Part shown: in pieces, positions 21,491 through 55,760 of the stretch
Position numbering within the stretch: the stretch's first letter is position 1
Layout: each line of letters starts with the position of its first letter
Origin: Porticoccaceae bacterium
GTDB taxonomy: Bacteria; Pseudomonadota; Gammaproteobacteria; Pseudomonadales; Porticoccaceae
NCBI GenBank assembly: GCA_051306415.1
Contig: JBPPNE010000074.1
Coordinates: 1-57,836 of the forward strand
Reading direction: 5' to 3'
DNA: 57,836 nucleotides
Position numbers and translations under genes: made by a program
Notes under the pieces: model-generated
Told to the model about the DNA's origin: nothing
The model's database searches: none
The model's input: the letters and a program-made list of their open reading frames with translations, nothing else

Positions 21491-21498
21491 TTCCAGTT

Positions 21499-29556: not shown

Positions 29557-31921
29557 GGATTGGTTTCCATTTCCAATCCCGAATCTCTGGCATATCCTGG
29601 CCGTGCTGTCGTATGTATTGCGTGTGTTCGATGAGTTTATCGCGGATGACTTGGGTTAAGTGCGCGGCACGAGACCCCAAACCCGGCACCCGATCAATCA
29701 CGTCTTGGGCCAAGTGGAAGCGATCCATATCATTCAACACCACCATGTCGAACGGCGTGGTGGTTGTGCCTTCTTCCTTGTAGCCGCGCACGTGCAGATT
29801 AGCGTGGTTGGCGCGCCGATACGTCAGTTGATGGATCAGCGAGGGATAACCATGGTAGGCGAAGACAATGGGTTTATCTGTGGTGAATAAAACATCGAAA
29901 TCCTTGTCGCTAAAACCATGGGGATGCTCACTCTGGGGCTGCAGCGCCATCAAGTCCACCACGTTGATGACGCGTATTTTGAGTTCCGGCAGATGCTGTC
30001 TAAGCAGGTCCACCGCCGCCAGCGTCTCCAGCGTCGGCACGTCGCCGCAGCAGGCCATGACCACATCGGGATCTCCCCCTTCGTCGTTGCTGGCCCATTC
30101 CCAGATGCCAAGCCCGGCGGTGCAGTGTTTGATCGCCGCATCCATGTCCAGCCATTGCAGTTCAGGCTGCTTGCCGGCCACAATCACATTGACGTAATGG
30201 CGGCTGCGCAGGCAATGGTCGGTCACCGACAGCAGGGTGTTGGCATCGGGCGGCAGATAGATACGGATGACTTCAGCCTTCTTGTTTGCCACCAGGTCGA
30301 TAAACCCCGGGTCCTGATGGCTGAAGCCATTGTGGTCCTGCCGCCACACGTGCGAAGACAGCAAATAGTTCAGCGAGGCAATAGGCCGACGCCACGCAAT
30401 GTCGCGTGTCACGTCGAGCCACTTGGCATGCTGGTTGAACATCGAATCGACTATGTGGATGAAGGCTTCATAGCAGGAGAAAAAGCCATGTCGCCCGGTC
30501 AGCAGATAACCTTCGAGCCAGCCCTGACACTGATGCTCACTCAACATCTCCATCACCCTGCCATCGGGCGCGACATGCTCGTCGCCGGGAAGAATCTCTG
30601 CCGTCGAACAGCGGTTCGTCACTTCGAACAGCGCATTCCAGCGATTCGACGCGGTTTCGTCCGGGCTGAAAATACGGAAGTTGCGTGCCTCGGCGTTGAG
30701 CTTCATCACGTCGCGCATGAACGCACCCTGCGCGCGCGTCGCTTCGGCTACCACCTCGCCGGGCTTCGGCACCTTGACCGCATAGTCGCGGAAGTCCGGC
30801 ATTTTCAGATCGCGCAGCAGCATGCCGCCATTGGCGTGCGGGTTGGCGCCCATGCGCCGCTCGCCTGTCGGCGCCAGTTCGGCCAGTTCCGCTATCAGCC
30901 TGCCCTGGGCATCGAATAATTCTTCCGGACGGTAACTTTTCATCCACTGCTCGAGTATCTTCAAGTGCTTGGGTTTTGTCGCAAGCTCTGCAACCGGCAC
31001 CTGGTGCGCGCGAAAGGTCCCTTCGATCTGTTTGCCATCCACTGTTTCAGGTCCGGTCCAGCCTTTCGGCGAGCGCAGGATGATCATGGGCCAGCGTGGG
31101 CGCTCGCCAAACCCATTGGCGCGCGCGTCGCGCTGGATGCGCTGGATCTCGGCAACCACGATGTCGAGGGTGGCCGCCATTAACTGATGCATCTGCTCGG
31201 GGTCGTCGTCCTCGACGAAATACGGCGTGTAGCCATAGCCGCGGAACAGCGCCTCCAACTCGTCGCGGGAAATGCGCGCCAGCACGGTGGGGCCGGCGAT
31301 CTTGTAGCCGTTCAGGTGCAGAATGGGTAGCACGGCACCGTCGTGAACCGGATTGAGAAATTTGTTCGAGTGCCAACTGGTGGCCATCGGGCCGGTTTCT
31401 GCCTCGCCATCGCCCACCACGCAGGCCACCAGCAGATCGGGGTTGTCGAACGCTGCACCATAGGCATGTGAAAGCGCATAGCCGAGTTCGCCGCCTTCGT
31501 TGATGGAGCCCGGGGTTTCCGGTGCAACGTGGCTGGGGATGCCGCCGGGAAAGGAAAACTGGGTGAACAATTTCTTCATCCCCGCTTCATCCTGGGAAAT
31601 ATTTGGATACACCTCGCTGTAAGTCCCCTCCAGATAGGTGTTGGCCACCAACCCCGGCCCGCCATGCCCGGGGCCGGTGACATTGATGATGCTCAGGTCG
31701 TATTGCTGGATGATCCGGTTGAGGTGGACATATACAAAATTTAGTCCCGGCGTGGTCCCCCAATGCCCCAGCAATCTGGGCTTGATGTGTTCCAACTTCA
31801 AAGGTTGTTTGAGTAGCGGATTATCGTAAAGATAAATCTGGCCGACCGACAGATAGTTGGCGGCGCGCCAGTAGGCATCCATCTTGTCGCGCAGTTGCGG
31901 GGAAAGCGTTTTTGTCTTCAT
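29549..31921 (-). CDS. xfp: phosphoketolase (xylulose-5-P/fructose-6-P)
   Basis: 790 aa. [29 protein letters not shown] and GDGEAETGP (ThDP region) are typical Xfp motifs. Confidence 0.95.
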
Positions 31922-32820
31922 GGTTCAGTTCCTTTTGTATTGTGCGCCGGAATTGTGTCTGCCGGCGCTGAATGCGTTTCGTCCTGAGCGGCGGACAGGC
32001 AGGCGCCGAATATGAAAATGCTCCCGGAAAGGTAAATCCACAGCAGCAATGCCATGATCCCGCCGAACGTCCCATAGACCGCGTTTAATGTGGAAAAATT
32101 CTTGAGGTAGATCACGAATAGACTTTCGGCCGCCAGCAAGAGCGCCGTGGCGCACAGGGCGGCGACCCAGACTTCGGAAAAGCGCGTAGGCCGGCGCGGA
32201 GCCAGCCGGTAAAACAGGCTCAGACCAAAGAACAGCGCCAGCAAGGGGATGAAAAAGCTCCCCAGGGTATAGACCCAGGAACGGAAATCATTCATGGGGA
32301 ACAGCCAGTCCCTCGCCATTTGCGCCGGCATTGGCGCGCCTATGCTCAAAAGCACCACACCCGCCGTGATTCCGAGCAGCACCAGGCTTTTGAGCGGCAG
32401 CCGCCACCAACTGTACCCCTCTGTGCCCCAAGCGTGGTTGGTCGCGCTGATGAGGGTGGTGAAGCATTGCAGGGTGACCCAGACCAGGATGAGAAACGCG
32501 ATCGCCCCCGCCTGCCCACGCGCTTTGATCACGCCAGCGACGGTGTCAAAAATGTAAGCTTGCTTGTCACCACTTAGCGGGACGAAGGTTTCAACATAGG
32601 CAATGACCTCCGTTGCGGCCCGGTCCCGATCAATAAAGGCCGAGGAGATCGTGACGAGCAGGACCATCAAGGGAAACAGTGAGAAGAACGCGTTGAAGGC
32701 AAACGCTCCCGCCCACTTTGTCCCGTCGATCCGGAGAAACTTTCTGGCCGCGAGACGAAATATCGCCCATGCCTGGCGTGCTCCCTGGTTAAGCCGGTTT
32801 TGCCCATGCATCTTGCGCAC
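31918..32820 (-). CDS. YihY/BrkB family inner-membrane protein
   Basis: 300 aa polytopic protein. The N-terminus [31 protein letters not shown] is the YihY signature. It has a 4-nt overlap with the xfp start. Confidence 0.75.
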
Positions 32821-32883
32821 TCTTTCTTTGCCGACGGAGCCAGGCCTTGCTTCCTGGCCGAGCGACGATAGAGGCGGGCGGGA

Positions 32884-34128
32884 TCATTCGGCGGCGCCTA
32901 CAATCGACAGCCCGGCACTTGGCGGAACCTCGTTCTCGAGTGTTGTTTTCACTATGTTCCACACCGAGCGTGCAATCATCAGTTCTTCGTCCGTGCGCAT
33001 GACGCGGACTGCAACCCGGCTGGCCGCTGCGGAAATCACGCCGTCCTTTGCAGTATTGTGCTGCTCGTCGAGTTCGATGCCAAGAAATTCCAGGCCGACG
33101 CAAATCCGCGCGCGGACGAGAGGCGCGTTCTCTCCGATGCCGCCTGCGAACACCAGCGTATCCAATCCGCCCAGGGCCGCGGCGTAGGCGCCAATCCATT
33201 TCTTGGCCTGGTAGCAAAACAGCGCGATCGCCTCCGCCGCGCGCACGTCCTGGGTTTCACGTTCGAGCAGGTCGCGCATGTCGGAACTGGTCTCCGATAC
33301 GCCGAGCAGCCCGGACGCTTGGTTCACCATATCCTGAAATTGTGTGGCACTCATATTCTCGGTACGCGCCAGGTACGAGACCAGTCCCGGATCCAGATCT
33401 CCCGAACGACTGCTCATCACCAACCCTGATGTCGGAGTGAAGCCCATGCTGGTGTCGATGCTCTTTCCGTCGCGCACGGCGGCCAGGCTCGCACCGTTAC
33501 CGAGGTGGGCCAGGATCACACGGCCCGTGGTTGCCGCCGGGTCGCCGAGGCGGACGAGTTCTTCCATAAGGTATTCATAAGACAAGCCATGGAATCCGTA
33601 ACGGCGTACACCCGCCGCCTCGTAGCGGCGCGGAATCGGCAACAGACTGGCAACCCGCGGCATGCCGCGGTGAAACGCGGTGTCAAAACACGCCACTTGC
33701 GGCAATGATGGGTGGCGCTGGCGGATTGCCTCGATCAGTTCGATCTCCAATGGCAAATGCTCCGGGTCATACGGCGTGATGCGGTGCAGTGCGTCGAGCA
33801 ACGCTGGCGTAACCCGCTCTGGCTCGCTATGCGTCATGCCGTGCACCACCCGATGTCCCACGGCTTTAACCGAGGCAAAATCCTGCTGCGTTTCGAGCCA
33901 ATCCAGCAGAAAGGCAATCGCCGAAGCGCGATCATTGGTGTCGAGGGTGTGGCTGTCCTGTAATTTCCCGGTAGCGTCCGTGAAACTCAAATTCGTGCCG
34001 CTCAGGCCAATACGATCAAGCTTCCCATGAAGCCCTCGTTGCAGCGATTCGCCTGTACGAAACAACGCGAACTTGATGCTCGACGAACCGCCGTTGATCG
34101 TCAGAATGTACGAGTCGGTGGATTTCAT
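32884..34128 (-). CDS. ackA: acetate kinase
   Basis: 414 aa. ILTINGGSSSIKFALF, HRVVHG and GFHGLSYEY are present. Confidence 0.9.
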   Translation of the reverse strand: MKSTDSYILTINGGSSSIKFALFRTGESLQRGLHGKLDRIGLSGTNLSFTDATGKLQDSHTLDTNDRASAIAFLLDWLETQQDFASVKAVGHRVVHGMTHSEPERVTPALLDALHRITPYDPEHLPLEIELIEAIRQRHPSLPQVACFDTAFHRGMPRVASLLPIPRRYEAAGVRRYGFHGLSYEYLMEELVRLGDPAATTGRVILAHLGNGASLAAVRDGKSIDTSMGFTPTSGLVMSSRSGDLDPGLVSYLARTENMSATQFQDMVNQASGLLGVSETSSDMRDLLERETQDVRAAEAIALFCYQAKKWIGAYAAALGGLDTLVFAGGIGENAPLVRARICVGLEFLGIELDEQHNTAKDGVISAAASRVAVRVMRTDEELMIARSVWNIVKTTLENEVPPSAGLSIVGAAE

Positions 34129-34230
34129 GGAAGACTCCTTCGTCGTTCTGAAAACCGAACGAATCCAGTTTCGTGCACATCCAGGACCACGCGGGCAATG
34201 GCTGTCACTAGCCCTGGTGTCTCGCGTCCC

Positions 34231-34259
34231 TTATTACTGCGCGCCAGCGGGCGGTCCAA
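34231..34259 (-). promoter_or_regulatory. candidate sigma70-type promoter upstream of ackA
   Basis: The minus strand reads TTGGAC (34259-34254), a 17-nt spacer, then TAATAA (34236-34231), ~100 nt upstream of the ackA ATG. This is a sequence match only. Confidence 0.3.
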
Positions 34260-34262
34260 ATG

Positions 34263-34652
34263 TTACGCCTTGAGGCTCGTGCAGACCCGCTGCAGCAGTG
34301 CCCGTACTTCCCTGCCAAGGGCATGCACATCCGGTTTGTCGACCAACTGTAACACGGCCTCGGGATCCATGAAGGCAACCGTTATGGTTTTATCGGCTTC
34401 TTCGCGCACAACCACGTTGCACGGCAACAGCAATCCAATGTCGGGGTCGGCCTCAAGCGCGCGGTGCGCGAGCGGGGGATTGCACGCACCGAGAATACGA
34501 TAGCGCCGCTGCTCGATATTGAGCTTGGCTTTCAGCGTGGCCTTGACGTCTATATCGGTGAGCACACCGAAGCCCTCCTTTTTCAGGGCCTCGATGACTC
34601 GTGCGACGGCAGTATCAAAAGGTAACGTTAGCTGGACGCTAAATCCGTACAT
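34263..34652 (-). CDS. DUF302 domain protein
   Basis: 129 aa. [26 protein letters not shown]...YRILGACNP...LPCNVVV is the typical DUF302 pattern. Confidence 0.75.
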
Positions 34653-34768
34653 GGGATGGTTCCTTCAGAATTGGTACTGCGAGTGAATAATGCGTTTCAT
34701 TTCAGCTGCCACTGGAATGAGCGTGGCGCGTCGCCTCCGGCACGCGCAATTTTCAGCTCAATTCACTG

Positions 34769-35212
34769 TCATTTGGCAGGCATGGTCTCTGTCATCTGGT
34801 CATGCTGCATCATTTGCTCCATCATCATCTGCATCATGTCCATGCGATTTGCCATCATTTCCTGGCGCTGTGCCATGTCGCCACCTGTCATGTTTTTGTT
34901 GCCGCCCATTGCCATGCCACCGGACTGGCTGCTGTCCAGCATCATCGGACCGCCCATGCTGCGCATCGACTTCATGTTTTCCTGCATGGCCTGCATGTGC
35001 TCCTGCATCAGCTTCTGACGTTCCTTCGGGTCGTTTGTTGCCCGGACCTTCTCCATCTGCTGCTGCATTTTTTTCATATCCCCCTGCATCTGAGACATTT
35101 GCTTGTCCATACGCATTCCCGGCGCGGCGGGCGCGGTTTCTTCCTTCGCCGATACGATAGATGCGGACAGGAAGCTGGCAACGATTGTGGCAACTAGTAT
35201 TGAGGTTTTCAT
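34769..35212 (-). CDS. exported methionine-rich protein (putative periplasmic Cu(I)-binding)
   Basis: ATG at 35212 after AAGGAA. The signal peptide is MKTSILVATIVASFLSASIVSA. By hand count there are ~31 Met in the ~120-aa mature part (MQMMMEQMMQHDQM and similar). Confidence 0.6.
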   Translation of the reverse strand: MKTSILVATIVASFLSASIVSAKEETAPAAPGMRMDKQMSQMQGDMKKMQQQMEKVRATNDPKERQKLMQEHMQAMQENMKSMRSMGGPMMLDSSQSGGMAMGGNKNMTGGDMAQRQEMMANRMDMMQMMMEQMMQHDQMTETMPAK

Positions 35213-35341
35213 TGTAGGTTTTCCTTCAGGGTTGAATAGATCAATGTTTCCGTTACTGGCGACTGCTGGTCGTGAAGGCTTGGCGTGAACACAACGCAAC
35301 ACGTCCACGTCAGGCAAGTCGTGTTTCTGACAGCTATACGT

Positions 35342-35575
35342 TCACTTCTTCTTTTGCGTGACGAGCCATGCCACGAAGCCGACCAACGCGATGACAACCA
35401 GGATCGGCAACCATATCCCGCCGTATCCACCCATCCAGCCGAAGCCATAGCCATCCATCATGCCGCCCATGCCGTATCCGCCTTGCGACGGTTGAGCCAG
35501 TGCTGTTGTTGTAACAATCGTTGCACCTATCAGTGCGGCAGCGCTCAAAGTCTTGCGAAGGTTCATGCGTTTCAT
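35342..35575 (-). CDS. small exported Gly/Met/Tyr-rich protein with C-terminal TM anchor
   Basis: ATG at 35575 after GGAG. The product is MKRMNLRKTLSAAALIGATIVTTTALA / QPSQGGYGMGGMMDGYGFGWMGGYGG / IWLPILVVIALVGFVAWLV / TQKKK. Confidence 0.5.
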   Translation of the reverse strand: MKRMNLRKTLSAAALIGATIVTTTALAQPSQGGYGMGGMMDGYGFGWMGGYGGIWLPILVVIALVGFVAWLVTQKKK

Positions 35576-35679
35576 AGCTAAACTCCATTCAGAGATTATT
35601 GCGGGATAGTTTCTTATAGACGCAGACTTTTTCACCGTCTGTACGCCGCCGCACATAATGCCTTTATGCCCTGTTATTG

Positions 35680-37614
35680 CTATTTTTCCAGTCTCAGCAA
35701 TCGCGCGTTGATGGCCACAATCACTGTACTTGCGGCCATCAACGCTGCACCCACTGCCGGGGTGAGCACCATGCCCCACGCGTAAAGCGCGCCGGCCGCT
35801 AACGGAATCGCGACGACATTGTAGCCGGTGGCCCAGGCCAGATTCTGTATCATTTTCCGATACGTGGCCCGGGAAAGCTGCACGATGGCCACAACGTCCA
35901 GCGGGTTGCTGCGTACCAGAATCACGTCGGCGGTTTCCACCGCCACATCGGAACCGGCACCGATGGCGATACCCACGTCGGCCTGCGCCAGCGCCGGAGC
36001 ATCGTTCACGCCGTCACCGGTCATGGCCACCCTCACCCCGCGTGATTGCACTTCTTTCACTTTGGCGGCCTTGTCCTGAGGCAGAACTTCGGCGAAATAT
36101 TCATCCAGCCCGATCTGATCCGAAACCCACTGCGCCGTCGCTTTGTTATCGCCGGTGAGCATCATGCAGCGGATGTTCATCGCCTTGAGGGCAGCTATGG
36201 CTTGCTTCGCCTCGGGCCGGACGATGTCGGCCAGTGCGATCGCGCCTTTCAACTGACCGTCCACGAGCACAAACACGACCGTTTTGCCCTGGGCTTGCAG
36301 CGGCTCGACGCTTTTGTCGTCAAACGCGATGTTCTGTTCGCGCAAGAAGCCTGGACTGACCACTTTGATGTCTTTGCCATCGACCCTGCCTTCTGCGCCT
36401 TTGCCGGTGATGCTTTTGAAGCCTTCAACCGGTAGCTTCTGCTCGTAAGCATCAGCGATAGCTTTGGCGATGGGATGCTCGGAATTCGCGTCCACCGAGG
36501 CCGCGTATTTGCGCAGCGTGTCTTCGTCGATGTCCTGCGCCAGCAGCAGCGTGTCGGTCACGCCAAAGCGGCCCTCGGTCAGCGTGCCGGTCTTGTCAAA
36601 GATGATGGCTTGCAATTTCCGCGCACCCTCGAAAGCGCCGCGATTGCGAATCAGCAGGCCGTTGCTCGCGGCCAGTGCCGTGGAGACGGCTACTACCAAC
36701 GGCACCGCCAGACCGAGCGCATGCGGGCAGGTGATCACCATCACAGTCACGGCGCGCTCGATGGCAAACGCGAATTCCTTGTTCATGAAATACAGCCAGA
36801 TGAATAAGGTAATGACTCCGGAACTCAGCCCAATGATGGTGAGCCACATCGCGGCGGTATCGGCGAGGTTTTGCGTCTTCGATTTGCTTTCCTGCGCCTG
36901 CTTCACCAGGTTGATGACCTGCGACAAAAACGAATCCTTGCCAGTACCTTTGACTTCGATAGTCAGCGAGCCTTCGCCGTTGATGGCGCCGCCGATGACT
37001 TTGCCGCCGCTCTTCTTGCTGACCGGGGTCGATTCCCCGGTGAGCATCGCCTCATTGACCGAACTCTCGCCGTCGACGATCACACCGTCCGCAGGGATTT
37101 TTTCACCCGGCTTGATCAGCACCCTGTCATCAACTGTCAGTTCGCCCAGCGGCACGTCTTTCACGCTGCCGTCGGGCATGAGTTTGTGTGCATCGGAAGG
37201 CATCAGTTTCGCCAATGCCTCCAGCGCCTTGGATGCGCCCATCACCGACTTCATTTCGATCCAGTGCCCGAGCAGCATGATGTCTACCAGCGTGGCCAAT
37301 TCCCAGAAGAACATCTTGCCGATCAGGCCGAACACCACGGCGCTGCTGTATGCATAAGCGGTGGTGATCGCGACGGCGACCAGCGTCATCATCCCAGGCT
37401 TGCGGGCCTTAAGCTCATCGAACAAGCCCTTGAGGAACGGCCAGCCGCCATACCAGAATACCGCCGAGGCAAAGCCGAACAGGACGTAGGTGTCGCCCGA
37501 GAAACTGATGGCTTCGCGCAAGCCCACCAGTTTTTGCAGCAGCGGCGAGAGAACGAGTATCGGCAACGTCAGGGCCAGCGAGATCCAGAAGCGTTTCCTA
37601 AAATCTGCCGCCAT
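35680..37614 (-). CDS. copB: P1B-type heavy-metal ATPase, CPH (CopB-like, P1B-3) class; N-terminal domain apparently split off by a frame change
   Basis: 644 aa with TCPHALGLAVP (CPH), [10 protein letters not shown] and MTGDGVNDAPAL. In the same frame, 13 codons upstream of the ATG still encode ...PPAGHDHHAH (a His-rich CopB-type remnant) after a TGA at 37654-37656. Confidence 0.85.
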   Translation of the reverse strand: MAADFRKRFWISLALTLPILVLSPLLQKLVGLREAISFSGDTYVLFGFASAVFWYGGWPFLKGLFDELKARKPGMMTLVAVAITTAYAYSSAVVFGLIGKMFFWELATLVDIMLLGHWIEMKSVMGASKALEALAKLMPSDAHKLMPDGSVKDVPLGELTVDDRVLIKPGEKIPADGVIVDGESSVNEAMLTGESTPVSKKSGGKVIGGAINGEGSLTIEVKGTGKDSFLSQVINLVKQAQESKSKTQNLADTAAMWLTIIGLSSGVITLFIWLYFMNKEFAFAIERAVTVMVITCPHALGLAVPLVVAVSTALAASNGLLIRNRGAFEGARKLQAIIFDKTGTLTEGRFGVTDTLLLAQDIDEDTLRKYAASVDANSEHPIAKAIADAYEQKLPVEGFKSITGKGAEGRVDGKDIKVVSPGFLREQNIAFDDKSVEPLQAQGKTVVFVLVDGQLKGAIALADIVRPEAKQAIAALKAMNIRCMMLTGDNKATAQWVSDQIGLDEYFAEVLPQDKAAKVKEVQSRGVRVAMTGDGVNDAPALAQADVGIAIGAGSDVAVETADVILVRSNPLDVVAIVQLSRATYRKMIQNLAWATGYNVVAIPLAAGALYAWGMVLTPAVGAALMAASTVIVAINARLLRLEK

Positions 37615-38357
37615 GTGGGCATGATGGTCGTGTCCGGCGGGGGGGCTTTCGACTCAGCGTCCACGGGTGTTGAGGGCTGTGTGCCCGACGCCGCGTGACC
37701 CTTGTGGCCGCCAGCTGCGGGAGTGGCCGGCGCGGGTTCTGGCTCAGCGGCGGACGCGCCTGGGGCAGCTTTCGGCGCATCGGCTGCGGGCGTTGAAGTC
37801 TGCGCGCCCGGTTCCACCTTGCCCTTGTCTTCGCCGGCAAAGGTATCCCTTACCCAAGCGGTAACCTTGCCAAGTGCCCCCGACTCCTCATGGTCCCTGT
37901 GTTCGTCGGCTGGAGAAGCGGCAGGCGTGGATGCCGGAGTGGCGGCGGAAGCGCCCGTAGGAGGTTTCGGCTCAGCGACAACGAATGTTGACGGCGGCGT
38001 ACTCGGCGGCGCTTGGTCGCTTTTCCCGCCACCTGCTGAAGCGGCAGGCGTGGGGGCGTCAACAGGCGCGTCCTGGGATGGTTTCGGCTCGGCGGCTGCG
38101 GCTGCGGACGGTGGCGCGTCCGGCACCACTTTGTCCTGTGGTCCGTCGCCTGCGGGCTGCTTCCCGCGTTGGTGCACGAGTACCTTGATATCGGCGACGT
38201 TGAGCAGGGTTTCGTCGTAGCGCACCGTGGCGTTTCCCGCAGCGTAATTCACTGTCGCGCTTTCGATACCCGGCACCTCGCCAAACCGCTTTTCCACTTC
38301 GTCCACGGTCAACACCGACAGCATGTCGTGCACTTCAATAACGCTCGTTTTCATCAC
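37569..38357 (-). CDS. Cys-less HMA-like domain protein 1 with a long Ala/Pro-rich tail (possibly the N-terminal part of CopB)
   Basis: The product is MMKTSVIEVHDMLSVLTVDEVEKRFGEVPGIESATVNYAAGNATVRYDETLLNVADIKVLVHQRG plus a ~190-aa low-complexity tail containing GGHKGHAASG. The 3' end overlaps copB out of frame. Confidence 0.7.
   Translation of the reverse strand: MMKTSVIEVHDMLSVLTVDEVEKRFGEVPGIESATVNYAAGNATVRYDETLLNVADIKVLVHQRGKQPAGDGPQDKVVPDAPPSAAAAAEPKPSQDAPVDAPTPAASAGGGKSDQAPPSTPPSTFVVAEPKPPTGASAATPASTPAASPADEHRDHEESGALGKVTAWVRDTFAGEDKGKVEPGAQTSTPAADAPKAAPGASAAEPEPAPATPAAGGHKGHAASGTQPSTPVDAESKAPPPDTTIMPTWRQILGNASGSRWP
37639..37645 (-). other. C7 homopolymer (C CCC CCG in the upstream frame): candidate -1 frameshift or indel site joining ORF 37569-38357 to copB
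   Basis: The plus strand has GGGGGGG at 37639-37645. A -1 shift, or one extra C, turns ...AESKAPP into ...AESKAPPAGHDHHAHMAADFRKRFW (the copB frame). Confidence 0.5.
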
Positions 38358-38797
38358 TCCTCCTTTGCGGCTACGGATGTTGATGGCGGCGCAGCCGGCG
38401 CCGCTTTGTCCTGTTGCCCGTCGCCTGCAGGAACAGCCGGCTTGGGCGCAGCGGCAGGCGCGACCGGGGCAGCTTTCAGCATAGCGGGTTCGGACGGTGA
38501 AGCGGCGGCCGGCGCCGCTTCCAGCGTTGGTTCTACAGCATGCTTATGTGCTGGCTTGTCTTCGCTCTCATCCTTGGCTTTGGATTCGCCTGCGGGCCGC
38601 TTCCCGTGTTGGTGCACGAGCACCTTGATACCGGCGACATCGAGCCGGGTTTCGTCGTAGCGCACCGTGGCGTTTCCCGCAGCGTAATTGACCGTCGCGC
38701 TTTCGACACCCGGCACCTCGCAAATCCGCTTTTCCACTTCGTCCACAGTCAGTACAGACAGCATGTCGTGTACTTCAATAACGCTCGTTTTCATCAC
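38354..38797 (-). CDS. Cys-less HMA-like domain protein 2
   Basis: 147 aa with the same N-terminal 65-aa domain. The tail contains DKPAHKHAVEPT. ATGA overlaps occur at both ends. Confidence 0.7.
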   Translation of the reverse strand: MMKTSVIEVHDMLSVLTVDEVEKRICEVPGVESATVNYAAGNATVRYDETRLDVAGIKVLVHQHGKRPAGESKAKDESEDKPAHKHAVEPTLEAAPAAASPSEPAMLKAAPVAPAAAPKPAVPAGDGQQDKAAPAAPPSTSVAAKEE

Positions 38798-39234
38798 TCA
38801 TCCTTAGCGGCTGCGGGTGTTGACGGCGGCGCAGCCGGCGCCTCATTGTCCTGTTGCCCGTCGCTTGCAGGAGCTGCCGGCTTGGGCGCGGTGGCAGGCG
38901 CGACCGGGGCAGCTTTCGGCACAGCGGGTTCGGGCGGTGAAGCGGAGGCCGGCGCCGCTTCCTGCGTTGGTTCTACAGCATGCATATGTGCGGGCTTGTC
39001 TTCGCTCTCATCCTTGGGTTGGGATTCGCCTGCGGACTGCTGCCCGCGTTGGTGTATGAGTACCTTGATATCGGCGACTTCGAGCAGGGTTTCGTCGTAG
39101 CGCACCGTGGCGTTTCCCACAGCGTAATTGACCGTAGCGCTTGCTACACCCGGCACCTCGCCAATTCGCTTTTCCACTTCGTCCACGGTCAATACCGACA
39201 GCATGTCGGTTACTTCAATAATGCTGGTTTTCAT
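38794..39234 (-). CDS. Cys-less HMA-like domain protein 3
   Basis: 146 aa: MKTSIIEVTDMLSVLTVDEVEKRIGEVPGVASATVNYAVGNATVRYDE.... The tail contains DKPAHMHAVEPT. Confidence 0.7.
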   Translation of the reverse strand: MKTSIIEVTDMLSVLTVDEVEKRIGEVPGVASATVNYAVGNATVRYDETLLEVADIKVLIHQRGQQSAGESQPKDESEDKPAHMHAVEPTQEAAPASASPPEPAVPKAAPVAPATAPKPAAPASDGQQDNEAPAAPPSTPAAAKDE

Positions 39235-39284
39235 ATCGCCTCCTTAATGGTCTTCATATTTGAAATGTTTTGTTACATCTCCGA

Positions 39285-42200
39285 TCATTTCGCGAGCTGG
39301 CCGTTTTGTGCGCGCGCCTGCATAACTTGCGTAAAAGTGTGACTCACCAATTTGCGCAGTTCGCTGACCCACAGCACCACGCTGGCCATCGCCATGCACA
39401 GCAGCCACTGGTCGAACGCCAGCGGCACCGTACCGAAGGCAAGGTTGAGGAAGGCGAGGTTGACGACTGCCACCTGCAACAGCGCCGACAGTGCAACCGC
39501 GCCCCACAGCCACGGGTTGACGAACAGGTGCCTGAACGCACTCGTCGTGTCCGAGCGCGCGTTGAAGCAGGTGAATAAGCTGGTGAAGACGAGTACCGTA
39601 AAACCTGCGGTGCGGGCAGTTTTGAGGTCGTATGCGCCCTCGATCAGCCCACCAGGCAGGTAGATGTCGATCGTCAGCAGCGTCACCACGGCTATCACCA
39701 CGCCGGTTTGGATCACATTCGCCCACATGCGGACGTCAATCAACCGCTCGCTTAAGTGCCGCGGCTTGCGGGCCATGAGGTCGTCAGTGGGCGGGTCGAC
39801 GCCCATCGCGAGCGCAGGCCCGGAGTCGGTGATCAGGTTGATCCACAGGATCTGCGTGGCGAGCAGCGGCAGCACTACTGCGCCGCCAGCGCCTTTGAGC
39901 CCAATCACGCCGGCCCCTACCACGCCCAGGAAGACCGTCAGCACCTCGCCCATGTTCGAGGACAGCAGGTAGCGCAGGAACTTGCGGATGTTGTCGACAA
40001 TGTCGCGCCCTTCGCGCACAGCCTCGACGATCGTGGCGAAGTTGTCGTCGGCGAGGATCATCTTGGCCGCTTCCTTCGTCACCTCGGTCCCGGTCACACC
40101 CATCGCGACGCCGATGTCAGCCGACTTCAGCGCGGGTGCATCGTTGACGCCGTCGCCGGTCATCGCGACGATGTTTCCGTCGGCCTGCAGTGCGTCGACG
40201 ATGCGCAGCTTGTGCGCGGGCGACACCCGTGCGTAGACGGACGTCTTGCGCACTGCGTCGGCGAAGCCCGCGCCGTCCAGCGCGTCGAGCTCCGCCCCCG
40301 TCAGCGCCGGGGCACCGGCCTCCACGATCCCAAGGTCGGCGGCGATGCGTGCGGCGGTGCGCGGGTGGTCGCCGGTAATCATGATCACCCGGATGCCAGC
40401 CCGATGGGCCTCGCGAATGGCAACCGCCGCCTCCTCGCGCGGCGGGTCGATGATGCCCACGGTGCCCACGAACACGAGGTCACGTTCGAGCGATTCCGTG
40501 ACTTGCGGGTCCTCACCGGGGCCGAGGGGGCGGTAGGCCACGGCCAGGGTGCGCAGCGCCGCGTCTGAAAGCGTGTCGACGTCAGCCAGGAGCCGCGCCC
40601 GCCGCGCGTCATCGAGGTCGACGAGTTCCATCCCCACCCGCGCCCGGGTGCACCGTTCGAGTAGGACATCCGGGGCACCCTTGGTGATCACCACAACCTC
40701 GTCGTTGTGTTCGTGGTCCAGTTCGATCGTCGACATCATCTTGCGCTCGGACGTGAACGGGATTTCGCCGATGCGCTCGAAACGCCGCTCGCGCTGCTCG
40801 GTGACGCCGAGTTTGCGCTCGGCCACCAGGAATGCCGCTTCGGTGGGGTCGCCGTGAATCTCCCACTCGCCCCCCGCCCCCTGGCGCAGGTCGGCGTTGC
40901 CGGCCAGGCTGCCGCCGCTGAGCACCGCGATTTGCTCGTCATGCAGCGGTCCGGCAGTTAGCTCAGCGCCTTCGTGCTCCACCCGCCCCTGAGGCGCGTA
41001 CCCCACCCCGGTGACATGGGTGCCGCCCGAGGCGGTCATCACCCGTACGATGGTCATTTCCCCACGGGTCAGGGTGCCGGTCTTGTCCGAGGCGATGACC
41101 GATGCGGAGCCCAGCGTCTCCACCGACGACAACTTTTTGACGATCGCGTTGTGCTTCGCCATCCGCTGCACCCCCAGGGCGAGCACCACCGACAGGATCG
41201 CCGGCAGCCCCTCGGGCACAGCCGCCACCGCCAGGGCCACGCCGAGCAGCAAGACGTGAATGACATCGGCGGCGCTGCGGATATCGGAGATCAGCAGGAT
41301 GGTTCCCACCACCACCACGGCAATGATGACGATCGCTATGCCGAGCATGCGCCCGATGCGTCCGACTTCCTTCTCCAACGGTGTCGGCTCGTCCGCGGTG
41401 GCCTCAAGCATTGCGGCAATCGAACCCATCTCGGTGTCCATCCCGGTCGCCGTGATCACGGCCCGGCCCGCGCCCTGCGCCACAGCCGTGCCCTTGAAGA
41501 CCATGTCGAACCGGTCGCCGAGCGCCGCCGCCTCGCGCAGCGTGGCCGCATCCTTGAGCACGGCTTCACTCTCGCCGGTCAGAGAGGCTTCCTGCACGCG
41601 CAGTGAGGTGGCCTCGATCAGGCGCGCATCCGCCCCGATGGCGTCACCTTCACCGAGCGCGAGCAAGTCCCCGAGCACCAGTTCCGCGCTGGGCACACGC
41701 AGCAACTGTCCGTCACGCATGACCGCCGAGGTTACGGCGGTCATCCGTGCCAGTGCGGCGACGGCGTTCTGTGCCTTGGCTTCCTGCATAAAGCCCAGCA
41801 CCCCATTGAACAAGACAACGATCGTGATAACAATCGCATCCACCGGCCAGCCCTTCGTGCCCTCAATGATCCAGGCGACGAGGGCGATGGCGATGGCGAC
41901 GAGCAGCAGATAAACCAGGGGATCATGGAAGTGCGACAGGAAGCGAAGCCACGCTGGCCGCCGCGGAGCAGAGCGGAGTTCGTTGCGGCCGTTTTCCGAA
42001 AGACGGCGCGACGCCTCCTGTGAAGTGAGTCCGTTTTCGAGGTCTGCGCCAAAAGCTCTCGCTACTTCGTCAGCATTTTTGACGGAAGGATCATCGAGAC
42101 TGCCTGCCTTCTCCATGGTGGATGCGGGAGTCATAGCGGGTGCGGGGGATGGAGGCGGCGCACCCGGCGCCGTGTGGCTCGCGTGGCCGTCGACTGCGGG

Positions 42201-42530
42201 AGCGGTCGGCGCAGGCACAGCAGCTATGGGCGTTGAAACGGAGGCCGGAGCCGCTTCCGGCGTTGGTGCTACAGCATGCTTTTGTGCGGGCTCGTGTTTG
42301 CTCACATGCTTGGGTAGGCGTTCGTCTGCGGACTGATGCCCGCGTTGGTGCACAATCACCTTGATATCGGCTACTTCGAGTAGGGTTTCGTCGTAACGTA
42401 CCGTGGCGTTTCCCGCGGCGTAATTCACTGTCGCGCTTTCGACACCCGGCACCTCGCCAATCCGCCTTTCCACTTCTTCCACACTCAATACCGACAGCAT
42501 GGCGCGCACTTCAATAACGCTCGTTTTCAT
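39285..42530 (-). CDS. P2A-type (SERCA/Ca-ATPase-like) cation pump with an N-terminal Cys-less HMA-like domain (copy 4)
   Basis: ATG at 42530 after AAGGAG: MKTSVIEVRAMLSVLSVEEVERRIGEVPGVESATVNYAAGNATVRYDE, then an Ala/Pro linker, then Cation_ATPase_N-like LTSQEASRRLSENGRNEL. DKTGTLT, PEGLPA, YLLSSNMGEV, NLITDSGPALA and TGDGVNDAPALK are all present. Confidence 0.85.
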   Translation of the reverse strand: MKTSVIEVRAMLSVLSVEEVERRIGEVPGVESATVNYAAGNATVRYDETLLEVADIKVIVHQRGHQSADERLPKHVSKHEPAQKHAVAPTPEAAPASVSTPIAAVPAPTAPAVDGHASHTAPGAPPPSPAPAMTPASTMEKAGSLDDPSVKNADEVARAFGADLENGLTSQEASRRLSENGRNELRSAPRRPAWLRFLSHFHDPLVYLLLVAIAIALVAWIIEGTKGWPVDAIVITIVVLFNGVLGFMQEAKAQNAVAALARMTAVTSAVMRDGQLLRVPSAELVLGDLLALGEGDAIGADARLIEATSLRVQEASLTGESEAVLKDAATLREAAALGDRFDMVFKGTAVAQGAGRAVITATGMDTEMGSIAAMLEATADEPTPLEKEVGRIGRMLGIAIVIIAVVVVGTILLISDIRSAADVIHVLLLGVALAVAAVPEGLPAILSVVLALGVQRMAKHNAIVKKLSSVETLGSASVIASDKTGTLTRGEMTIVRVMTASGGTHVTGVGYAPQGRVEHEGAELTAGPLHDEQIAVLSGGSLAGNADLRQGAGGEWEIHGDPTEAAFLVAERKLGVTEQRERRFERIGEIPFTSERKMMSTIELDHEHNDEVVVITKGAPDVLLERCTRARVGMELVDLDDARRARLLADVDTLSDAALRTLAVAYRPLGPGEDPQVTESLERDLVFVGTVGIIDPPREEAAVAIREAHRAGIRVIMITGDHPRTAARIAADLGIVEAGAPALTGAELDALDGAGFADAVRKTSVYARVSPAHKLRIVDALQADGNIVAMTGDGVNDAPALKSADIGVAMGVTGTEVTKEAAKMILADDNFATIVEAVREGRDIVDNIRKFLRYLLSSNMGEVLTVFLGVVGAGVIGLKGAGGAVVLPLLATQILWINLITDSGPALAMGVDPPTDDLMARKPRHLSERLIDVRMWANVIQTGVVIAVVTLLTIDIYLPGGLIEGAYDLKTARTAGFTVLVFTSLFTCFNARSDTTSAFRHLFVNPWLWGAVALSALLQVAVVNLAFLNLAFGTVPLAFDQWLLCMAMASVVLWVSELRKLVSHTFTQVMQARAQNGQLAK

Positions 42531-42598
42531 CGCAGCTCCTTGGTCGGCTTCATCTTGTGAATGCTTTGTTACATCGCCAATCTCTTCGCAAGCTGACC

Positions 42599-42652
42599 GT
42601 TTTCGAGGTGGCGCCAACCTCGTTATGGCAACTGTGCAACACGCGTGTCGGC
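42599..42652 (-). repeat. 54-nt conserved element immediately 3' of HMA-like gene 5 (copy A)
   Basis: 46/54 identical to 43694-43747 by hand alignment. It contains a hairpin CGAGGT-N7-ACCTCG (42604-42622). The stem is conserved between copies while two loop positions differ. Confidence 0.6.
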
Positions 42653-44215: not shown

Positions 44216-44301
44216 CGTGCCTCCGTGCTCGTCCTCGACGTCAGTGTGGTAAGACGTGGCTTGGTTTACGTATCCGATTCCTTGCTTCACTGATTGGCGA
44301 C

Positions 44302-51858: not shown

Positions 51859-54219
51859 TCACAGCCGCACCCGATTCAGGCGCAGCGCGTTGCCGACCAC
51901 GGACACCGAGCTGAACGACATCGCCGCCGCCGCGATGATGGGCGACAACAGGATGCCAAAGAACGGATACAGCACCCCGGCGGCGACCGGCACACCAATA
52001 CTGTTGTAGATGAAGGCGAAGAACAGGTTCTGCTTGATGTTGCTCATGGTCGCCCGGCTAAGTTTGCGCGCGCGCACAATGCCACGCAGATCGCCCTTTA
52101 CCAGCGTCACGCCGGCGCTCTGCATGGCCACGTCGGTGCCGGTGCCCATGGCGATGCCGACCTGCGCCTGCGCCAGCGCCGGGGCGTCATTGATGCCATC
52201 GCCGGCCATGGCGACGAAGCGGCCCTCGGCCTGCAGCGCCTTGACCTTCTGCGCCTTCTGCTCCGGCAACACCTCGGCCAGCACCTCGTCGATGCCGAGT
52301 TTGCCGGCCACCGCCTGCGCCGTGGTGCGGCTGTCGCCGGTGATCATGACGATGCGGATGCCTTCCTCATGCAGGGCGCGGATCGCCTCCAGCGTGGTTG
52401 CCTTGATCGGATCGGCAACGGCGACCAGCCCGGCCAGCTTGCCGTCGACCGCAATGAACATCGCCGTCTTGCCTTCAGAACGCAGGGCCTCGGCGCTCTC
52501 GGCCAAGGTCTCGACGCTGACGCCGAGAGCATCCATCAGCGCCCGGTTGCCGAGCGCCACCGCCTGCTCGCCGATGCGCCCCTGCACGCCCTTGCCGGTG
52601 ACCGACTCGAAGTCGGTGTACTGACTGAGCTGTACGCCACGCTCATCGGCACCCTGGACAATCGCCGCCGCCAGCGGATGCTCGCTGCCGCGCTCCAGGG
52701 TGGCCGCCAGGCCCAGCACCTGCCCTTCTTCAAAGCCTTCCACGGCAACCACGTCCTGCAAGCGCGGCCGCCCCTCGGTGAGGGTGCCGGTCTTGTCGAC
52801 GATCAGCGTGTCCACCTGGCGCAGCGTCTGGATGGCCTCGGCGCTCTTGAACAGCACGCCCATGGACGCCCCCTTGCCGCTGGCGACCATGATGGACATG
52901 GGCGTCGCCAGCCCCAGCGCGCACGGACAGGCGATGATTAGCACTGCCACCGCGTTGATCAGCGCATAGGCCATGGCCGGCTGCGGCCCCCACTGGCTCC
53001 AGACCACAAAGGTGACGACGGCGATCCCCACCACGACCGGCACGAACCAGGTGGCGACCACGTCCACCAGGTTCTGGATCGGCGCGCGGCTGCGGCTCGC
53101 CTCGGCCACCATCTGCACGATCTGCGCGAGCAACGTGTCACTGCCCACCCGCTGCGCCTCGATAACCAGCGAGCCGGTACCGTTGACCGTGGCGCCGATG
53201 ACCTTGTCACCCGCCCCCTTCTCCACCGGAATGGGCTCGCCGGTGATCATGGACTCGTCCACTGCGGAGTGTCCCTCGACCACCACGCCGTCCACCGGCA
53301 GCTTCTCGCCCGGCCGCACGCGCAGGCGATCACCGATCTGCACCTGCTCCAGCGGTACGTCCACCTCGCTGCCGTCAGCCGCCAGCCGGCGAGCCGTCTT
53401 GGGGGCGAGGCCGAGCAGCGCCTTGATGGCGGCGTTGGTCGAGCTGCGCGCACGCAGCTCCATGACCTGCCCGAGCAGCACCAGGGTGACGATGACCGCC
53501 GCGGCCTCGAAGTAAACAGCGACCTGTCCTGCCTGGCCCCGGAACGAGTCCGGGAAAATGCCCGGGAATAGCGTGGCGACCAGGCTGTACAGGTAGGCCA
53601 CGCCGACGCCCAGCCCGATCAGCGTGAACATATTCAGCTTCCAGGTGACCAGCGAGCGCCAGCCGCGCACGAAAAACGGCCAGCCGCCCCACAGCACCAC
53701 CGGCGTGGCCAGGGCAAGTTCCAGCCACATGCCCAGCGCGTGCGGCACCAGCGCCTCCATCGATACACCGGGAATGAGTCCACCCATCGCCAGAAAGACC
53801 GCGGGAATGGTGAGCACGACGCCGACCCAGAAACGCCGGGTCATGTCCTTGAGTTCGGGGTTCTCCTCCTCTGCTGCGGTGATCTGGAGCGGCTCTAGCG
53901 CCATGCCGCAGATCGGACAGTTGCCAGGATGGTCCTGGCGTACCTCGGGGTGCATGGGGCAGGTGTAGATCGTGCCGCCGGCGGCAGGCAGCGTATCCGG
54001 CGCGGATTTCCGCTGCGCGCCCTGGTGGTCGTGGCCGGCAGCGCCCAGGACATGCCCATCTGGCAAGGTGCGCGTGCCGACAAAGGTCGCGGGATCGGCC
54101 ACAAAACCGTCCCGGCAGCGCGTGGAGCAAAAATAATAGGTATGCCCGGCGTGGTCGGCGGTGCCCGCGGCTCGCGCCGGCTCCACCTGCATGCCGCATA
54201 CGGGATCTGTTGCCATCAT
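51859..54219 (-). CDS. copA: P1B-1 (Cu+/Ag+) ATPase with N-terminal YHS/TRASH-like and YTCPMHP metal-binding modules
   Basis: ATG at 54219 ([12 protein letters not shown]...[12 protein letters not shown]; [26 protein letters not shown]). [38 protein letters not shown] and MSFSSVSVV are present. The ORF-track start at 54564 is rejected. Confidence 0.9.
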
Positions 54220-54539
54220 GTGCCTTGACTCCTTGCCGGCGACACCCGGTCCGCTGCGAACCGGCGACCGCCGAGCCCGTTGTAAATCCAGGCGAACACT
54301 GCGCCCACCCCGAAGGTGGCAACGACGAGTCCCGCCAGCGCGCAGAAAAAGCCACTCCAGCCGAACCGCAATCCCGCCGCGGGCAATAAAGGCTTCAGAT
54401 CGAGCCCGTGTGTCAAGACACTGAACGAGGCCAGCGTACCAGCGGGCCACGCCACAACCGCAAACGTGCAGATTCCGTAAAACACCGCAGCGGTGATCGC
54501 CAGCGCCCCGCCGGTCTGCCAGGGATTCAGTCGGTGCAT
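54216..54539 (-). CDS. small 3-TM membrane protein (DUF5676-like, recalled)
   Basis: 107 aa: [23 protein letters not shown]...[27 protein letters not shown]. The stop overlaps the copA ATG (ATGA). Confidence 0.45.
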
Positions 54540-54564
54540 CGCCTATTCCTCCCGGCGCTGGCAT

Positions 54565-55355: not shown

Positions 55356-55760
55356 CTAGTCATCGACCGACTCGATCAGGTGACAAATGGTGTCGCCGTT
55401 GGGCAGCCGATCGGGCATGTGTTGCCACTGCGCCAAGGCCCGTTGCATGGTGCTACGCAGCGCAACGAGCGCCTGCAACTCATGCTCACTGTCGACGACG
55501 CGGCGCTCGATAATGTCACGCACCAGCGGGCACGGCGTCTGCCCGCGCGTACTGGTGCTGATGATTTCGGCGATCTCCGCCAGCGTGAAACCCAGGCGCT
55601 GAGCACGACGGATAAAAAGCAATCGCCGGACATCCGCCTCGCTGAACTCCCGGTAGCCGTTTTCGCCGCGGCGCTCGGGCGTCAGCAGTCCGATCCGGAC
55701 GTAATAGCGGACCACGTGAGGCGTTACACCGACTCGCGTTGCCAGCTCACGCACTTTCAT
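55356..55760 (-). CDS. MerR-family (heavy-metal-responsive type) transcriptional regulator
   Basis: 134 aa. The HTH is MKVRELATRVGVTPHVVRYYVRIGLL, followed by a coiled coil. Candidate ligand residues are Cys (TPCPLVRD) and C-terminal DTICH. Confidence 0.8.
   Translation of the reverse strand: MKVRELATRVGVTPHVVRYYVRIGLLTPERRGENGYREFSEADVRRLLFIRRAQRLGFTLAEIAEIISTSTRGQTPCPLVRDIIERRVVDSEHELQALVALRSTMQRALAQWQHMPDRLPNGDTICHLIESVDD

Follow-up and report, generated by a model that had tools for sequence, protein, structure and literature searches.

Is the overlap of two open reading frames at a copper-pump locus of a Porticoccaceae bacterium a device for ribosomal recoding, or the trace of a lost nucleotide? 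In a 57,836-nucleotide stretch of contig JBPPNE010000074.1, referred to here as the window, the upstream frame (ORF262) runs out of frame over the start of a CopB-like pump, and the two frames meet in a run of seven C residues that forms a perfect −1 slippery heptamer. A sequence-only reading of the locus had left four options: an assembly error, a recent inactivating indel, a phase-variable switch and programmed −1 frameshifting. We find that the split most probably reflects a recent mutation of an ordinary kind, or else a slip in sequencing, rather than a programmed signal for recoding; a recent indel and an assembly error fit all of the findings, whereas the switch and the programmed frameshift lack what they would require.

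The split locus and its products

The pump is of the CopB (CPH) type, as had been proposed. The whole protein matches the model for copper-translocating P1B ATPases (TIGR01511) at 630.2 bits (cut-off of 397), and also matches TIGR01525 (604 bits; cut-off of 346) and the Pfam families E1-E2_ATPase and Hydrolase. Its 644-amino-acid translation contains the DKTGT phosphorylation motif (IFDKTGTLT) and, in transmembrane helix 4, the Cys-Pro-His motif (VITCPHALGLAVP), and residues 4–640 align with residues 80–731 of Legionella CopA (3RFU). Nothing is missing from the pump between helix MA and the C terminus, and its sequence starts just before helix MA of the solved CopA. With the CopB (P1B-3) copper ATPases that have a His-rich N terminus (PMC10233261) it shares the CPH and DKTGT motifs, a core of eight helices and, ahead of helix MA, a His-rich stretch (GHKGH ... 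HDHHAH). In this sub-lineage, however, the His-rich stretch is short and follows a cysteine-less HMA-like domain and a long Pro/Ala linker, and in this window the N-terminal part is out of frame. In the window the pump thus lacks the attached His-rich N-terminal extension that all relatives have; close relatives carry DUF2934 in place of the HMA-like domain and linker.

ORF262 does encode the anticipated HMA-like domain and linker. The ferredoxin-like HMA fold is recognized by Pfam HMA (35–37 bits; cut-off of 24.8), and the domain aligns with the metal-binding domains of Bacillus subtilis CopA and ATP7B. The GMxCxxC metal-binding loop is absent—the window has DMLSVLTV, and Cys occurs there in 0 of 147 related copies—and NCBIfam CopZ models give about 25 bits against cut-offs of 91–95.

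The geometry of the junction is as first described (Table 1). The likely start of ORF262 is the ATG at 38354, which is preceded by a Shine–Dalgarno sequence (AAGGAGG) located in the last codons of the adjacent stand-alone HMA-like gene. The C-terminal end of ORF262 reads ...AESKAPPPDTTIMPTWRQILGNASGSRWP before its stop codon, and its overlap with the pump ORF, which lies in the −1 frame relative to it, is 46 nt. The 13 open pump-frame codons ahead of the pump ATG are directly preceded by a TGA (37654–37656) and include no ATG, GTG or TTG, and the conserved His-rich tail that they encode is separated in the window from any start codon. HDHHAH is encoded at 37615–37632 in the pump frame and GHKGH in the other frame. 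We found no Shine–Dalgarno sequence before the pump ATG at 37614 and, on the minus strand between the two genes, no promoter-like or terminator-like site. Adding one C, as the earlier reading had predicted, yields a continuous 891-amino-acid protein (...AESKAPPAGHDHHAHMAADFRKRFW...) that runs from the HMA-like domain through the linker and His-rich stretch into the pump. The fusion and the zero-frame tail would be distinguished by the peptides (K)APPAGHDHHAHMAADFR and (K)APPPDTTIMPTWR, respectively.

Table 1 Features of the split pump locus and of other parts of the window
Feature	Position	Strand	Description
Pump ORF	35680..37614	minus	644 aa, N terminus MAADFRKRFW; CPH-type copper-translocating P1B ATPase
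Pump-frame codons 5′ of the pump ATG	37615–37653	minus	13 open codons, VESPPAGHDHHAH; conserved His-rich (D/N)HHAH tail
ORF262	37569..38357	minus	262 aa: cysteine-less HMA-like domain, ~170-aa Pro/Ala-rich linker, out-of-frame tail
Out-of-frame tail of ORF262	37572–37637	minus	22 residues, then TGA 37569–37571
C_CCC_CCG heptamer	37638..37644	minus	In-frame X_XXY_YYZ, in phase with ORF262
C7 run (plus-strand G7)	37639..37645	minus	Meeting point of both frames; one-base length difference from the intact homologue (CCCCACCC)
HMA-like domain of ORF262	about 38163–38339	minus	Pfam HMA 1.1e-08, residues 7–65
Stand-alone HMA-like gene	38354..38797	minus	146/147 aa; stop overlaps ORF262 start (GTGATGA)
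Stand-alone HMA-like gene, first of tandem pair	38794..39234	minus	146 aa
P2-type (SERCA/PMR1-like) ATPase	39285..42617	minus	Same cysteine-less HMA-like domain and linker at N terminus, in frame
Second CopA-type pump	51859..54564		Within the window
MerR-family regulator gene	55356..55760		Near the second CopA-type pump
IS3 orfA/orfB frameshift site A_AAA_AAA	57559–57565		Real −1 example in the window

The C run in related loci

Nowhere else in the 57.8-kb window does G or C repeat seven or more times in a row. The ORF262 codons across it are GCC CCC CCG CCG, and a −1 slip on the heptamer would give ...KAPPAGHDHHAHM.... The heptamer by itself is no more than chance; the intact genes of the window, 15,951 codons in all, contain 37 in-frame X_XXY_YYZ heptamers, A_AAA_AAG, C_CCA_AAG and G_GGA_AAG among them. 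That the frame break falls exactly on the C run is not chance. Runs of five C residues are frequent in Pro/Ala linkers.

In the closest relative (L085; 89% nucleotide identity) the same protein is encoded by a single ORF of 891 codons. Alignment of that locus to window positions 38354–35680 covers 2,676 nt, of which 89.4% are identical, and the sole gap is the A of GCCCCACCCGCC, at window position 37641, where L085 has CCCCACCC and the window CCCCCCC. The repaired window protein and L085 share the junction KAPPAGHDHHAHMAADF exactly. The HMA-like domain and P1B pump occupy one open frame in 22 of 22 other loci that have this domain ahead of such a pump, the window being the only exception, and fused homologues with full lengths of 870–912 amino acids cover 100% of the repaired protein. 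Across about 80 species-level genomes, the pump ORF has 9–333 codons 5′ of MAADF and the extension ends in HHAH; in every relative the HHAH–MAADF motif lies inside the ORF, and no ORF in these genomes starts at the pump Met. Because a single frame encodes this protein in the relatives, we take the heptamer to mark a one-base deletion and not a conserved signal. The comparison of tract length that the earlier reading had suggested shows that C7 is not conserved: a comparable sequence occurs in one relative only, interrupted by A, and the others have no tract, with two of them (L004 and L086) reading GCACCCGCCGCC at that position. The deletion may have created the run, with L085 reading CCCCACCC, instead of the run having caused the split as first supposed.

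We also searched for further examples of the split state. No second split copy was found among the relatives; a 644-amino-acid relative (P0037) was considered as a second short pump and rejected, as it has a DUF2934 N terminus in frame and ATA where relatives have ATG. The last 113 amino acids of ORF262, out-of-frame tail included, had no match in the protein database at E ≤ 10, a negative that is weaker for the absence of the window's own ORF262 from the matches of that search, which indicates that gene calling had probably passed over the ORF. A 140-amino-acid junction query matched only sequences of ≤243 amino acids at ≤88% identity, none of them from this population.

These comparisons make it highly improbable that the run is a phase-variable switch, in which slipped-strand mispairing would toggle the gene between a fused (C8 or C5) and a split (C7) state. 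A tract change of +1 or −2 would restore the frame, the locus is accessory and mobile, and seven residues is the lower edge of tract lengths known to vary. As in contingency loci (Neisseria, Haemophilus and Campylobacter, and the C run of Bordetella bvgS), the length of a coding poly-C/G tract decides the frame. However, the tract of the window is short, relatives either have no such tract or have it interrupted, and each of the 22 related loci is fused, which would be the ON state. Variants in tract length, to be expected of a contingency locus, were not seen between relatives; the run is most simply the product of the deletion itself.

Deletion, artefact and recoding

The one-nucleotide loss is probably a real, recent mutation in this population and not a recoding device. 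An ancestral single gene of about 891 codons, encoding the cysteine-less HMA-like domain, the Pro/Ala linker, a short His-rich tail and the CPH-type pump, would have lost one nucleotide at the linker–tail junction, either by deletion of the A of CCCCACCC or by a CCA to CCC change followed by contraction of C8 to C7. The pump core has no further lesion and a dN/dS of 0.08 relative to L085, which suggests that the event is recent. Ribosomes that start at the ATG at 38354 would read 22 nonsense codons, stop at the TGA and release a free HMA–linker protein similar to the two natural stand-alone paralogues upstream. As neither a start codon nor a Shine–Dalgarno sequence precedes Met-1 of the pump, its synthesis would depend on weak initiation or re-initiation at the ATG at 37614, about 40 nt upstream of the ORF262 stop, and the pump is predicted to be strongly down-expressed or silent. 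Its loss would probably be tolerated owing to the second CopA-type pump in the same window. The C7 run, a by-product of the deletion, would ease reversion by +1 slippage compared with an ordinary site.

In every material respect the locus resembles frameshift-disrupted genes and homopolymer consensus errors, with a one-base change relative to intact orthologues, a homopolymer-like site, no other damage and a single affected sequence; what sets it apart is only that its run forms a mildly shifty heptamer, from which reversion is easier. Broken copies of the pump with premature stops occur in 3 of 75 related loci. The lack of a second lesion suits a very recent mutation and an artefact equally.

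It is possible, although unlikely, that the organism has CCCCACCC or C8 and a single 891-amino-acid gene, and that one base was dropped from the consensus during sequencing or assembly. Such an artefact would agree with a gap in the only G/C run of at least 7 nt in the window, with a single indel across 2.7 kb that is otherwise undamaged, and with an out-of-frame product found nowhere else. Premature pump stops are present in three related loci from metagenome-assembled genomes, and the contig names of L038 and L070, as names only, suggest long-read assemblies. However, window positions 31848–36178, a T7 run included, are matched with no mismatches and no gaps by eight Logan contigs from as many different SRA runs. 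This base-for-base identity of the adjacent 4.3 kb in eight independent run assemblies, which end at about 36175, 1.46 kb before the junction, favours a real mutation. The other large genes (about 37) are full length, and at least nine other homopolymers of 6–7 nt lie within intact ORFs. The contig ends beside an IS3 element, as is usual for short-read assemblies, which points to short-read data; short-read consensus indels at 7-nt runs are uncommon. Look-ups of the DUF302 gene and a 77-amino-acid ORF led to Logan contigs from SRR22508337–SRR22508411, and no independent assembly was found by exact look-up of the pump, of ORF262 or of either stand-alone HMA-like gene. Truncated DUF2254, XFP and aldolase remnants in the region are genuine scars.

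To programmed −1 frameshifting on C_CCC_CCG, which would set how much free HMA-like protein (zero frame) is made per full-length pump (−1 frame), we give hardly any credence. The heptamer is in phase with ORF262 and −1 is the direction needed. In E. coli, C_CC.C_CC.G is among the heptamers that shift at more than 0.10% without stimulators (PMC4066793), so trace read-through is plausible, and spontaneous −1 slippage may by this analogy add a trace of pump on the order of 0.1–0.5%. The zero frame also encodes an APPPD polyproline stretch, and such stretches are known, in general terms, to stall ribosomes (PMC8129111). On the other side, a heterogeneous A-site codon such as CCG makes a poorer shifter (PMC4066793), and neither the heptamer nor the two-frame arrangement is conserved, the relatives being single-frame without it. 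The downstream RNA structure that the earlier reading had proposed to look for was not found, as four stretches fold no better than their shuffles (z = +0.31 to +1.62). There is no GGAGG-like sequence 5–20 nt 5′ of the heptamer and no Rfam family match at the junction; with no stimulator, the expected −1 yield is well below 1%. The slippage described for CCC-C is in the +1 direction (PMC8129111), which here enters the frame of an 80-amino-acid ORF (37598..37840) and meets a stop after 13 codons, and would therefore not rescue the pump.

Copper pumps offer a precedent, as E. coli copA undergoes a programmed −1 frameshift that yields CopA(Z), according to PMC7558416 and PMC10187127, which cite Meydan 2017 and Drees 2017. 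Both loci are P1B copper ATPase genes with an N-terminal HMA domain, a −1 change between that domain and the pump, and a free HMA product. In copA, however, the full pump is read in the zero frame and a short product results from the shift, whereas in the window the zero frame ends and a shift is needed for the long product; the window also has no structure, relatives that are simply in frame and an HMA domain without CxxC. The copA site is reportedly C_CCA_AAG, conserved and followed by a downstream structure. The −1 sites of the IS3 family and dnaX share the in-phase X_XXY_YYZ motif and the long product in the −1 frame, but have a stimulator and family-wide conservation, neither of which is found at the copB site. 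Were C7 real and kept, pausing at Ala-Pro-Pro-Pro-Asp might raise the −1 slip to several percent and fix a small amount of full-length HMA–linker–pump beside abundant free HMA-like protein, perhaps in dependence on EF-P or prolyl-tRNA supply. This scenario, which we regard as just as remote, would be the reverse of E. coli CopA/CopA(Z), arisen de novo from a single-base deletion.

Neighbouring HMA-like genes and the meaning of the split

The pump belongs to a gene string headed by the P2-type ATPase (probable true start, ATG 42530), an arrangement that is also found on the L004 contig, where the gene order is the same and the pump gene is fused (877 amino acids). L004, L085 and L086 each have one stand-alone HMA-like gene before the fused pump. 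Tandem copZ genes upstream of Haemophilus influenzae copA similarly place several near-identical small HMA genes before a copper pump (PMC10187127). Those copies have CxxC and bind copper, whereas the window copies have MLSVL(S/T)V and long Pro/Ala tails, and a chaperone role for them is therefore only putative.

Stand-alone HMA-like genes are normal in this system, which lends some appeal to adaptive gene fission, in which a real and selected deletion would free a third such protein together with an N-terminally bare, possibly de-regulated pump from Met-1. The pump core is intact, the 644-amino-acid product begins just before helix MA, and pumps with just a 9-residue N-terminal tail exist in nature (L063 and L064). 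We nevertheless judge fission very unlikely. The natural stand-alone copies end cleanly, with a Shine–Dalgarno sequence and an ATGA overlap; at the split, by contrast, ORF262 carries a nonsense tail of 22 residues and overlaps the pump ORF by 46 nt, with no Shine–Dalgarno sequence. No relative starts at the pump Met, all of them keep at least the HDHHAH tail, and the split is present in one contig only.

The two ORFs should be annotated as a single gene with a frameshift, encoding HMA-like domain, linker, His tail and CopB-type pump, and not as a chaperone and a short pump, and the perfect slippery heptamer should not be recorded as a recoding candidate. More generally, a deletion in a GC-rich Pro/Ala linker can create a homopolymer that mimics a frameshift signal, and one close relative suffices to expose such mimicry. 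If the allele is real, it would represent a naturally occurring knock-out of the N-terminal part of a widely transferred copper pump, and could be used to probe the role of the cysteine-less HMA-like domain.

Structure and setting of the split pump gene

ORF262, which encodes an HMA-like domain and a linker, and the copB-like pump ORF overlap by 46 nt in different frames, and re-reading the sequence bore out the sequence-only reading in all details: a two-ORF split with a C7 run as the meeting point, a C_CCC_CCG heptamer in phase with the ORF262 frame (codons GCC CCC CCG), and a pump in the −1 frame. ORF262 ends in ...AESKAPPPDTTIMPTWRQILGNASGSRWP*. Above the pump ATG, 13 codons are open in the pump frame (VESPPAGHDHHAH), with a TGA before them at 37654–37656; there is no start codon among these 13 and no Shine–Dalgarno sequence before the ATG. 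The run is the only G/C homopolymer of at least 7 nt in the window, and adding one C to it gives an uninterrupted 891-amino-acid protein (hereafter, the repaired protein). The 644-amino-acid pump is a copper-translocating P1B ATPase (TIGR01511, 630 bits against a cut-off of 397) with DKTGT and CPH motifs, and its alignment with Legionella CopA (3RFU) begins just before helix MA and runs to the end.

The split pair ends a co-oriented gene string made up of a P2-type ATPase, two stand-alone HMA-like genes, ORF262 and the pump. The stand-alone proteins end in ...AAKEE or AAKDE, an AAGGAGG Shine–Dalgarno sequence lies within the last codons of each gene, and each overlaps the next gene through an ATGA stop/start. 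No minus-strand promoter-like or terminator-like site was found in 35300–39500. Elsewhere, the window carries an N-type ATP synthase operon, phosphoketolase, acetate kinase, glycolytic genes, a second CopA-type pump, a MerR regulator, a DUF411 protein and two transposases. At 15378–16475 and 12578–13732, the N-type ATPase operon includes a b/delta-like subunit with a DUF2934 domain, the domain that forms the N terminus of most close CopB relatives, and a baeRF (release-factor-like) gene.

Features of the window that bear on the split pump
Feature	Position	Strand	Remarks
ORF262	37569..38357	minus	HMA-fold domain (Pfam HMA, residues 7–65), then a Pro/Ala-rich linker of ~170 residues
Pump ORF	35680..37614	minus	644 aa, N terminus MAADFRKRFW; Pfam E1-E2_ATPase and Hydrolase
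C7 run	37639–37645	minus (coding)	Plus-strand G7
P2-type (SERCA/PMR1-like) ATPase	39285..42617	minus	N-terminal HMA-like domain and linker as in ORF262
Stand-alone HMA-like gene	38794..39234	minus	
Stand-alone HMA-like gene	38354..38797	minus	
Second CopA-type pump	51859..54564		YHS and HMBD domains
IS3-family transposase	56678–57774	minus	Contig end; orfB (rve domain) in the −1 frame of orfA
Gene remnants	21487–21699, 23863–24030, 25769–26383, 26880–27242, 28083–28181		Phosphoketolase C terminus (two), DUF2254 (two), class-I aldolase N terminus; all also intact in the window
Cysteine-less HMA copies	38163–38339, 38794–39234, 38354–38797, 42653–43138, 43748–44290, N terminus of 39285–42617		Also in loci L004 and L085–L164

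At the canonical GMTCxxC site, each of the 147 HMA-like copies from the fetched loci has (D/G/A)MLSVL(S/T)V, with no cysteine in any of them. To judge by their sequences, these domains form a conserved subfamily incapable of canonical Cu(I) binding. Pro/Ala-rich linkers join them to at least three classes of P1B pump (84–94%, 51–63% and 34–39% identity to the window pump) and to the P2-type SERCA/PMR1-like ATPase; they also occur as tandem stand-alone genes.

One fused gene in relatives, and the origin of the run

In the closest relative, L085 (VFSW01015990.1), the gene is a single ORF of 891 codons counted from its ATG. This ORF (2,676 nt) and window 38354–35680 (2,675 nt) are 89.4% identical in a global alignment whose only gap falls at window position 37641, where L085 has GAGTCGAAAGCCCCACCCGCCGGACAC and the window has GAGTCGAAAGCCCC-CCCGCCGGACAC; the window is thus one nucleotide short relative to L085. 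The in-frame product of L085 at this point is therefore ESKAPPAGHDHHAHM, the same fusion that had been predicted from the window. Between the two, dN/dS is 0.08 in the pump, as against 0.35 in the HMA domain and 0.65 in the linker; relative to L085, purifying selection on the pump core is strong, and the core is intact. Synonymous divergence (window 35680–38354 against L085 547–3222) is 0.45 in the pump but 0.12–0.17 across HMA domain, linker and junction, a difference suggestive of a recombination breakpoint close to the junction and of separate histories for the N-terminal module and the pump.

A search with the repaired protein returned homologues that cover 100% of its length (P0001, 877 amino acids and 78% identity; P0002, P0004, P0015 and P0024, 870–912 amino acids), all of which read ...AAG(G)H(N/K)(D)HHAHMAADF... 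in a single frame. The contig of P0001 (L004) has the gene order of the window: a P2 ATPase with an HMA-like domain, one stand-alone HMA gene, the fused pump and acetate kinase. In each of the 22 other metagenome-contig loci where a cysteine-less HMA-like domain directly precedes a P1B pump, the two share one open frame, the window being the sole exception. In ~80 species-level genomes that span many phyla, the pump ORF without exception reaches 9–333 codons above MAADF, with an extension that ends in (D/N/G)HHAH and usually consists of a DUF2934 domain and a His-rich stretch; in none does it start at the MAADF methionine. The 94%-identical pump P0037 (L001 5785–6003, also L002 and L003) is called as 644 amino acids because its DUF2934 domain, otherwise open and in frame, opens with ATA rather than ATG behind a well-placed TAAGGAG; the ATA is either an initiation codon or a start-codon mutation. 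In L007–L084, the N-terminal core of the pump protein is 80–97% identical among MAGs assigned to Betaproteobacteria, Gammaproteobacteria, Verrucomicrobiota, Acidobacteriota, Planctomycetota, Chloroflexia, Bacteroidota, Nitrospira and others; by this measure, copB of the window's type has evidently spread widely through horizontal transfer.

The C7 run could have arisen by two routes. The A may have been lost directly, in which case the deletion would have created the run; alternatively, a synonymous CCA-to-CCC change may have come first, followed by contraction of C8 to C7, making the deletion a result of the run. On either route the relatives lack a C7 run: L004 and L086 read GCA CCC GCC GCC GGA there, and a similar tract is absent from every other fetched locus.

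Recoding and phase variation

Programmed −1 frameshifting, one of the options raised from the sequence alone, is made unlikely by the relatives, which are in one frame, and by the lack of stimulatory elements: four stretches 3′ of the run show no more stable folding than shuffled controls (z = +0.31 to +1.62), there is no Shine–Dalgarno-like element upstream of the heptamer, and an Rfam search of the window gave no match. The C_CCC_CCG heptamer alone carries little weight as evidence for recoding; X_XXY_YYZ heptamers occur in phase 37 times among the 15,951 codons of intact window genes, and A_AAA_AAG, C_CCA_AAG and G_GGA_AAG, all far stronger, are among them. In a systematic study in E. coli, Sharma et al. 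placed C_CC.C_CC.G among 18 heptamers whose shifting exceeds 0.10% in the absence of a stimulator (background 0.055%); all motifs tested in this way gave 2–10 times background, and CCN and heterogeneous A-site codons such as CCG were the poorer shifters (PMC4066793). On the basis of these rates, trace −1 read-through of a few tenths of a percent would be expected. We consider it very improbable that polyproline-assisted −1 slippage keeps a set ratio of products. The direction reported for CCC-C slippage is +1 (PMC8129111); such a shift would not rescue the pump, as it enters the third frame and reaches a stop after 13 codons.

A genuine −1 site does occur in the window, in contrast to the copB heptamer: the IS3 orfA/orfB junction reads TTA AAA AAA G (A7 at 57559–57565), and A_AAA_AAA is the canonical programmed frameshift site of the IS3 family. 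The nearest interesting analogue is E. coli copA, in which a programmed −1 frameshift yields the CopA(Z) chaperone (as cited in PMC7558416 and PMC10187127). Gene type and shift direction are common to both, although the logic is reversed, as the shift in the window is required for the long product. A phase-variable switch, also suggested earlier, fares no better, as the site is not conserved in the manner of a contingency locus.

Real deletion or consensus error, and the consequences

In all respects, the site looks as a gene disrupted by a frameshift, or a miscalled homopolymer, would look. We favour a real, recent deletion as the probable explanation; phase variation, programmed frameshifting and adaptive fission jointly take up what probability a deletion and a consensus artefact leave. 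An artefact is the less likely reading, although the C7 site is the most error-prone single spot in the window and a second lesion is absent. Against it, eight Logan contigs, one per SRA run (SRR22508337–SRR22508407; among loci L165–L176), match window 31848–36178 with no mismatches and no gaps, including a T7 run; an identical 77-amino-acid ORF just downstream of the pump is also on contigs from a ninth run, SRR22508411. These contigs all end near 36175, inside the conserved pump core and short of the junction; given this identity, the runs SRR22508337–SRR22508411 hold reads for checking the C7 run. Around 37 large window genes have full-length family matches and at least nine other homopolymers of 6–7 nt lie in intact ORFs, so the window consensus is not indel-prone.

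The region also bears genuine scars, shortened copies of DUF2254, the phosphoketolase C terminus and aldolase, which point to repeated duplication and recombination. Damaged copies of the pump exist elsewhere: the pump core is interrupted by a premature stop in 3 of 75 related loci (L012, L038 and L070), and L012 has a further in-frame stop inside its N-terminal DUF2934 domain. Damage to this mobile pump, or else indel error in MAGs, is not rare. Overall, the indirect evidence leans towards a real mutation.

If the deletion is real, translation from the HMA-like ATG would give a 261-amino-acid protein with a 22-residue nonsense tail, and the pump core would be made only through weak initiation or re-initiation at the ATG at 37614, or through rare −1 slippage. 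The 644-amino-acid product would keep the whole membrane and catalytic core. Some activity is conceivable, because pumps with N-terminal tails of just 9–29 residues occur naturally (L063, L064, L042 and L013); no relative entirely lacks the HDHHAH tail. Loss of the split pump may be tolerable because of the second CopA-type pump in the window.
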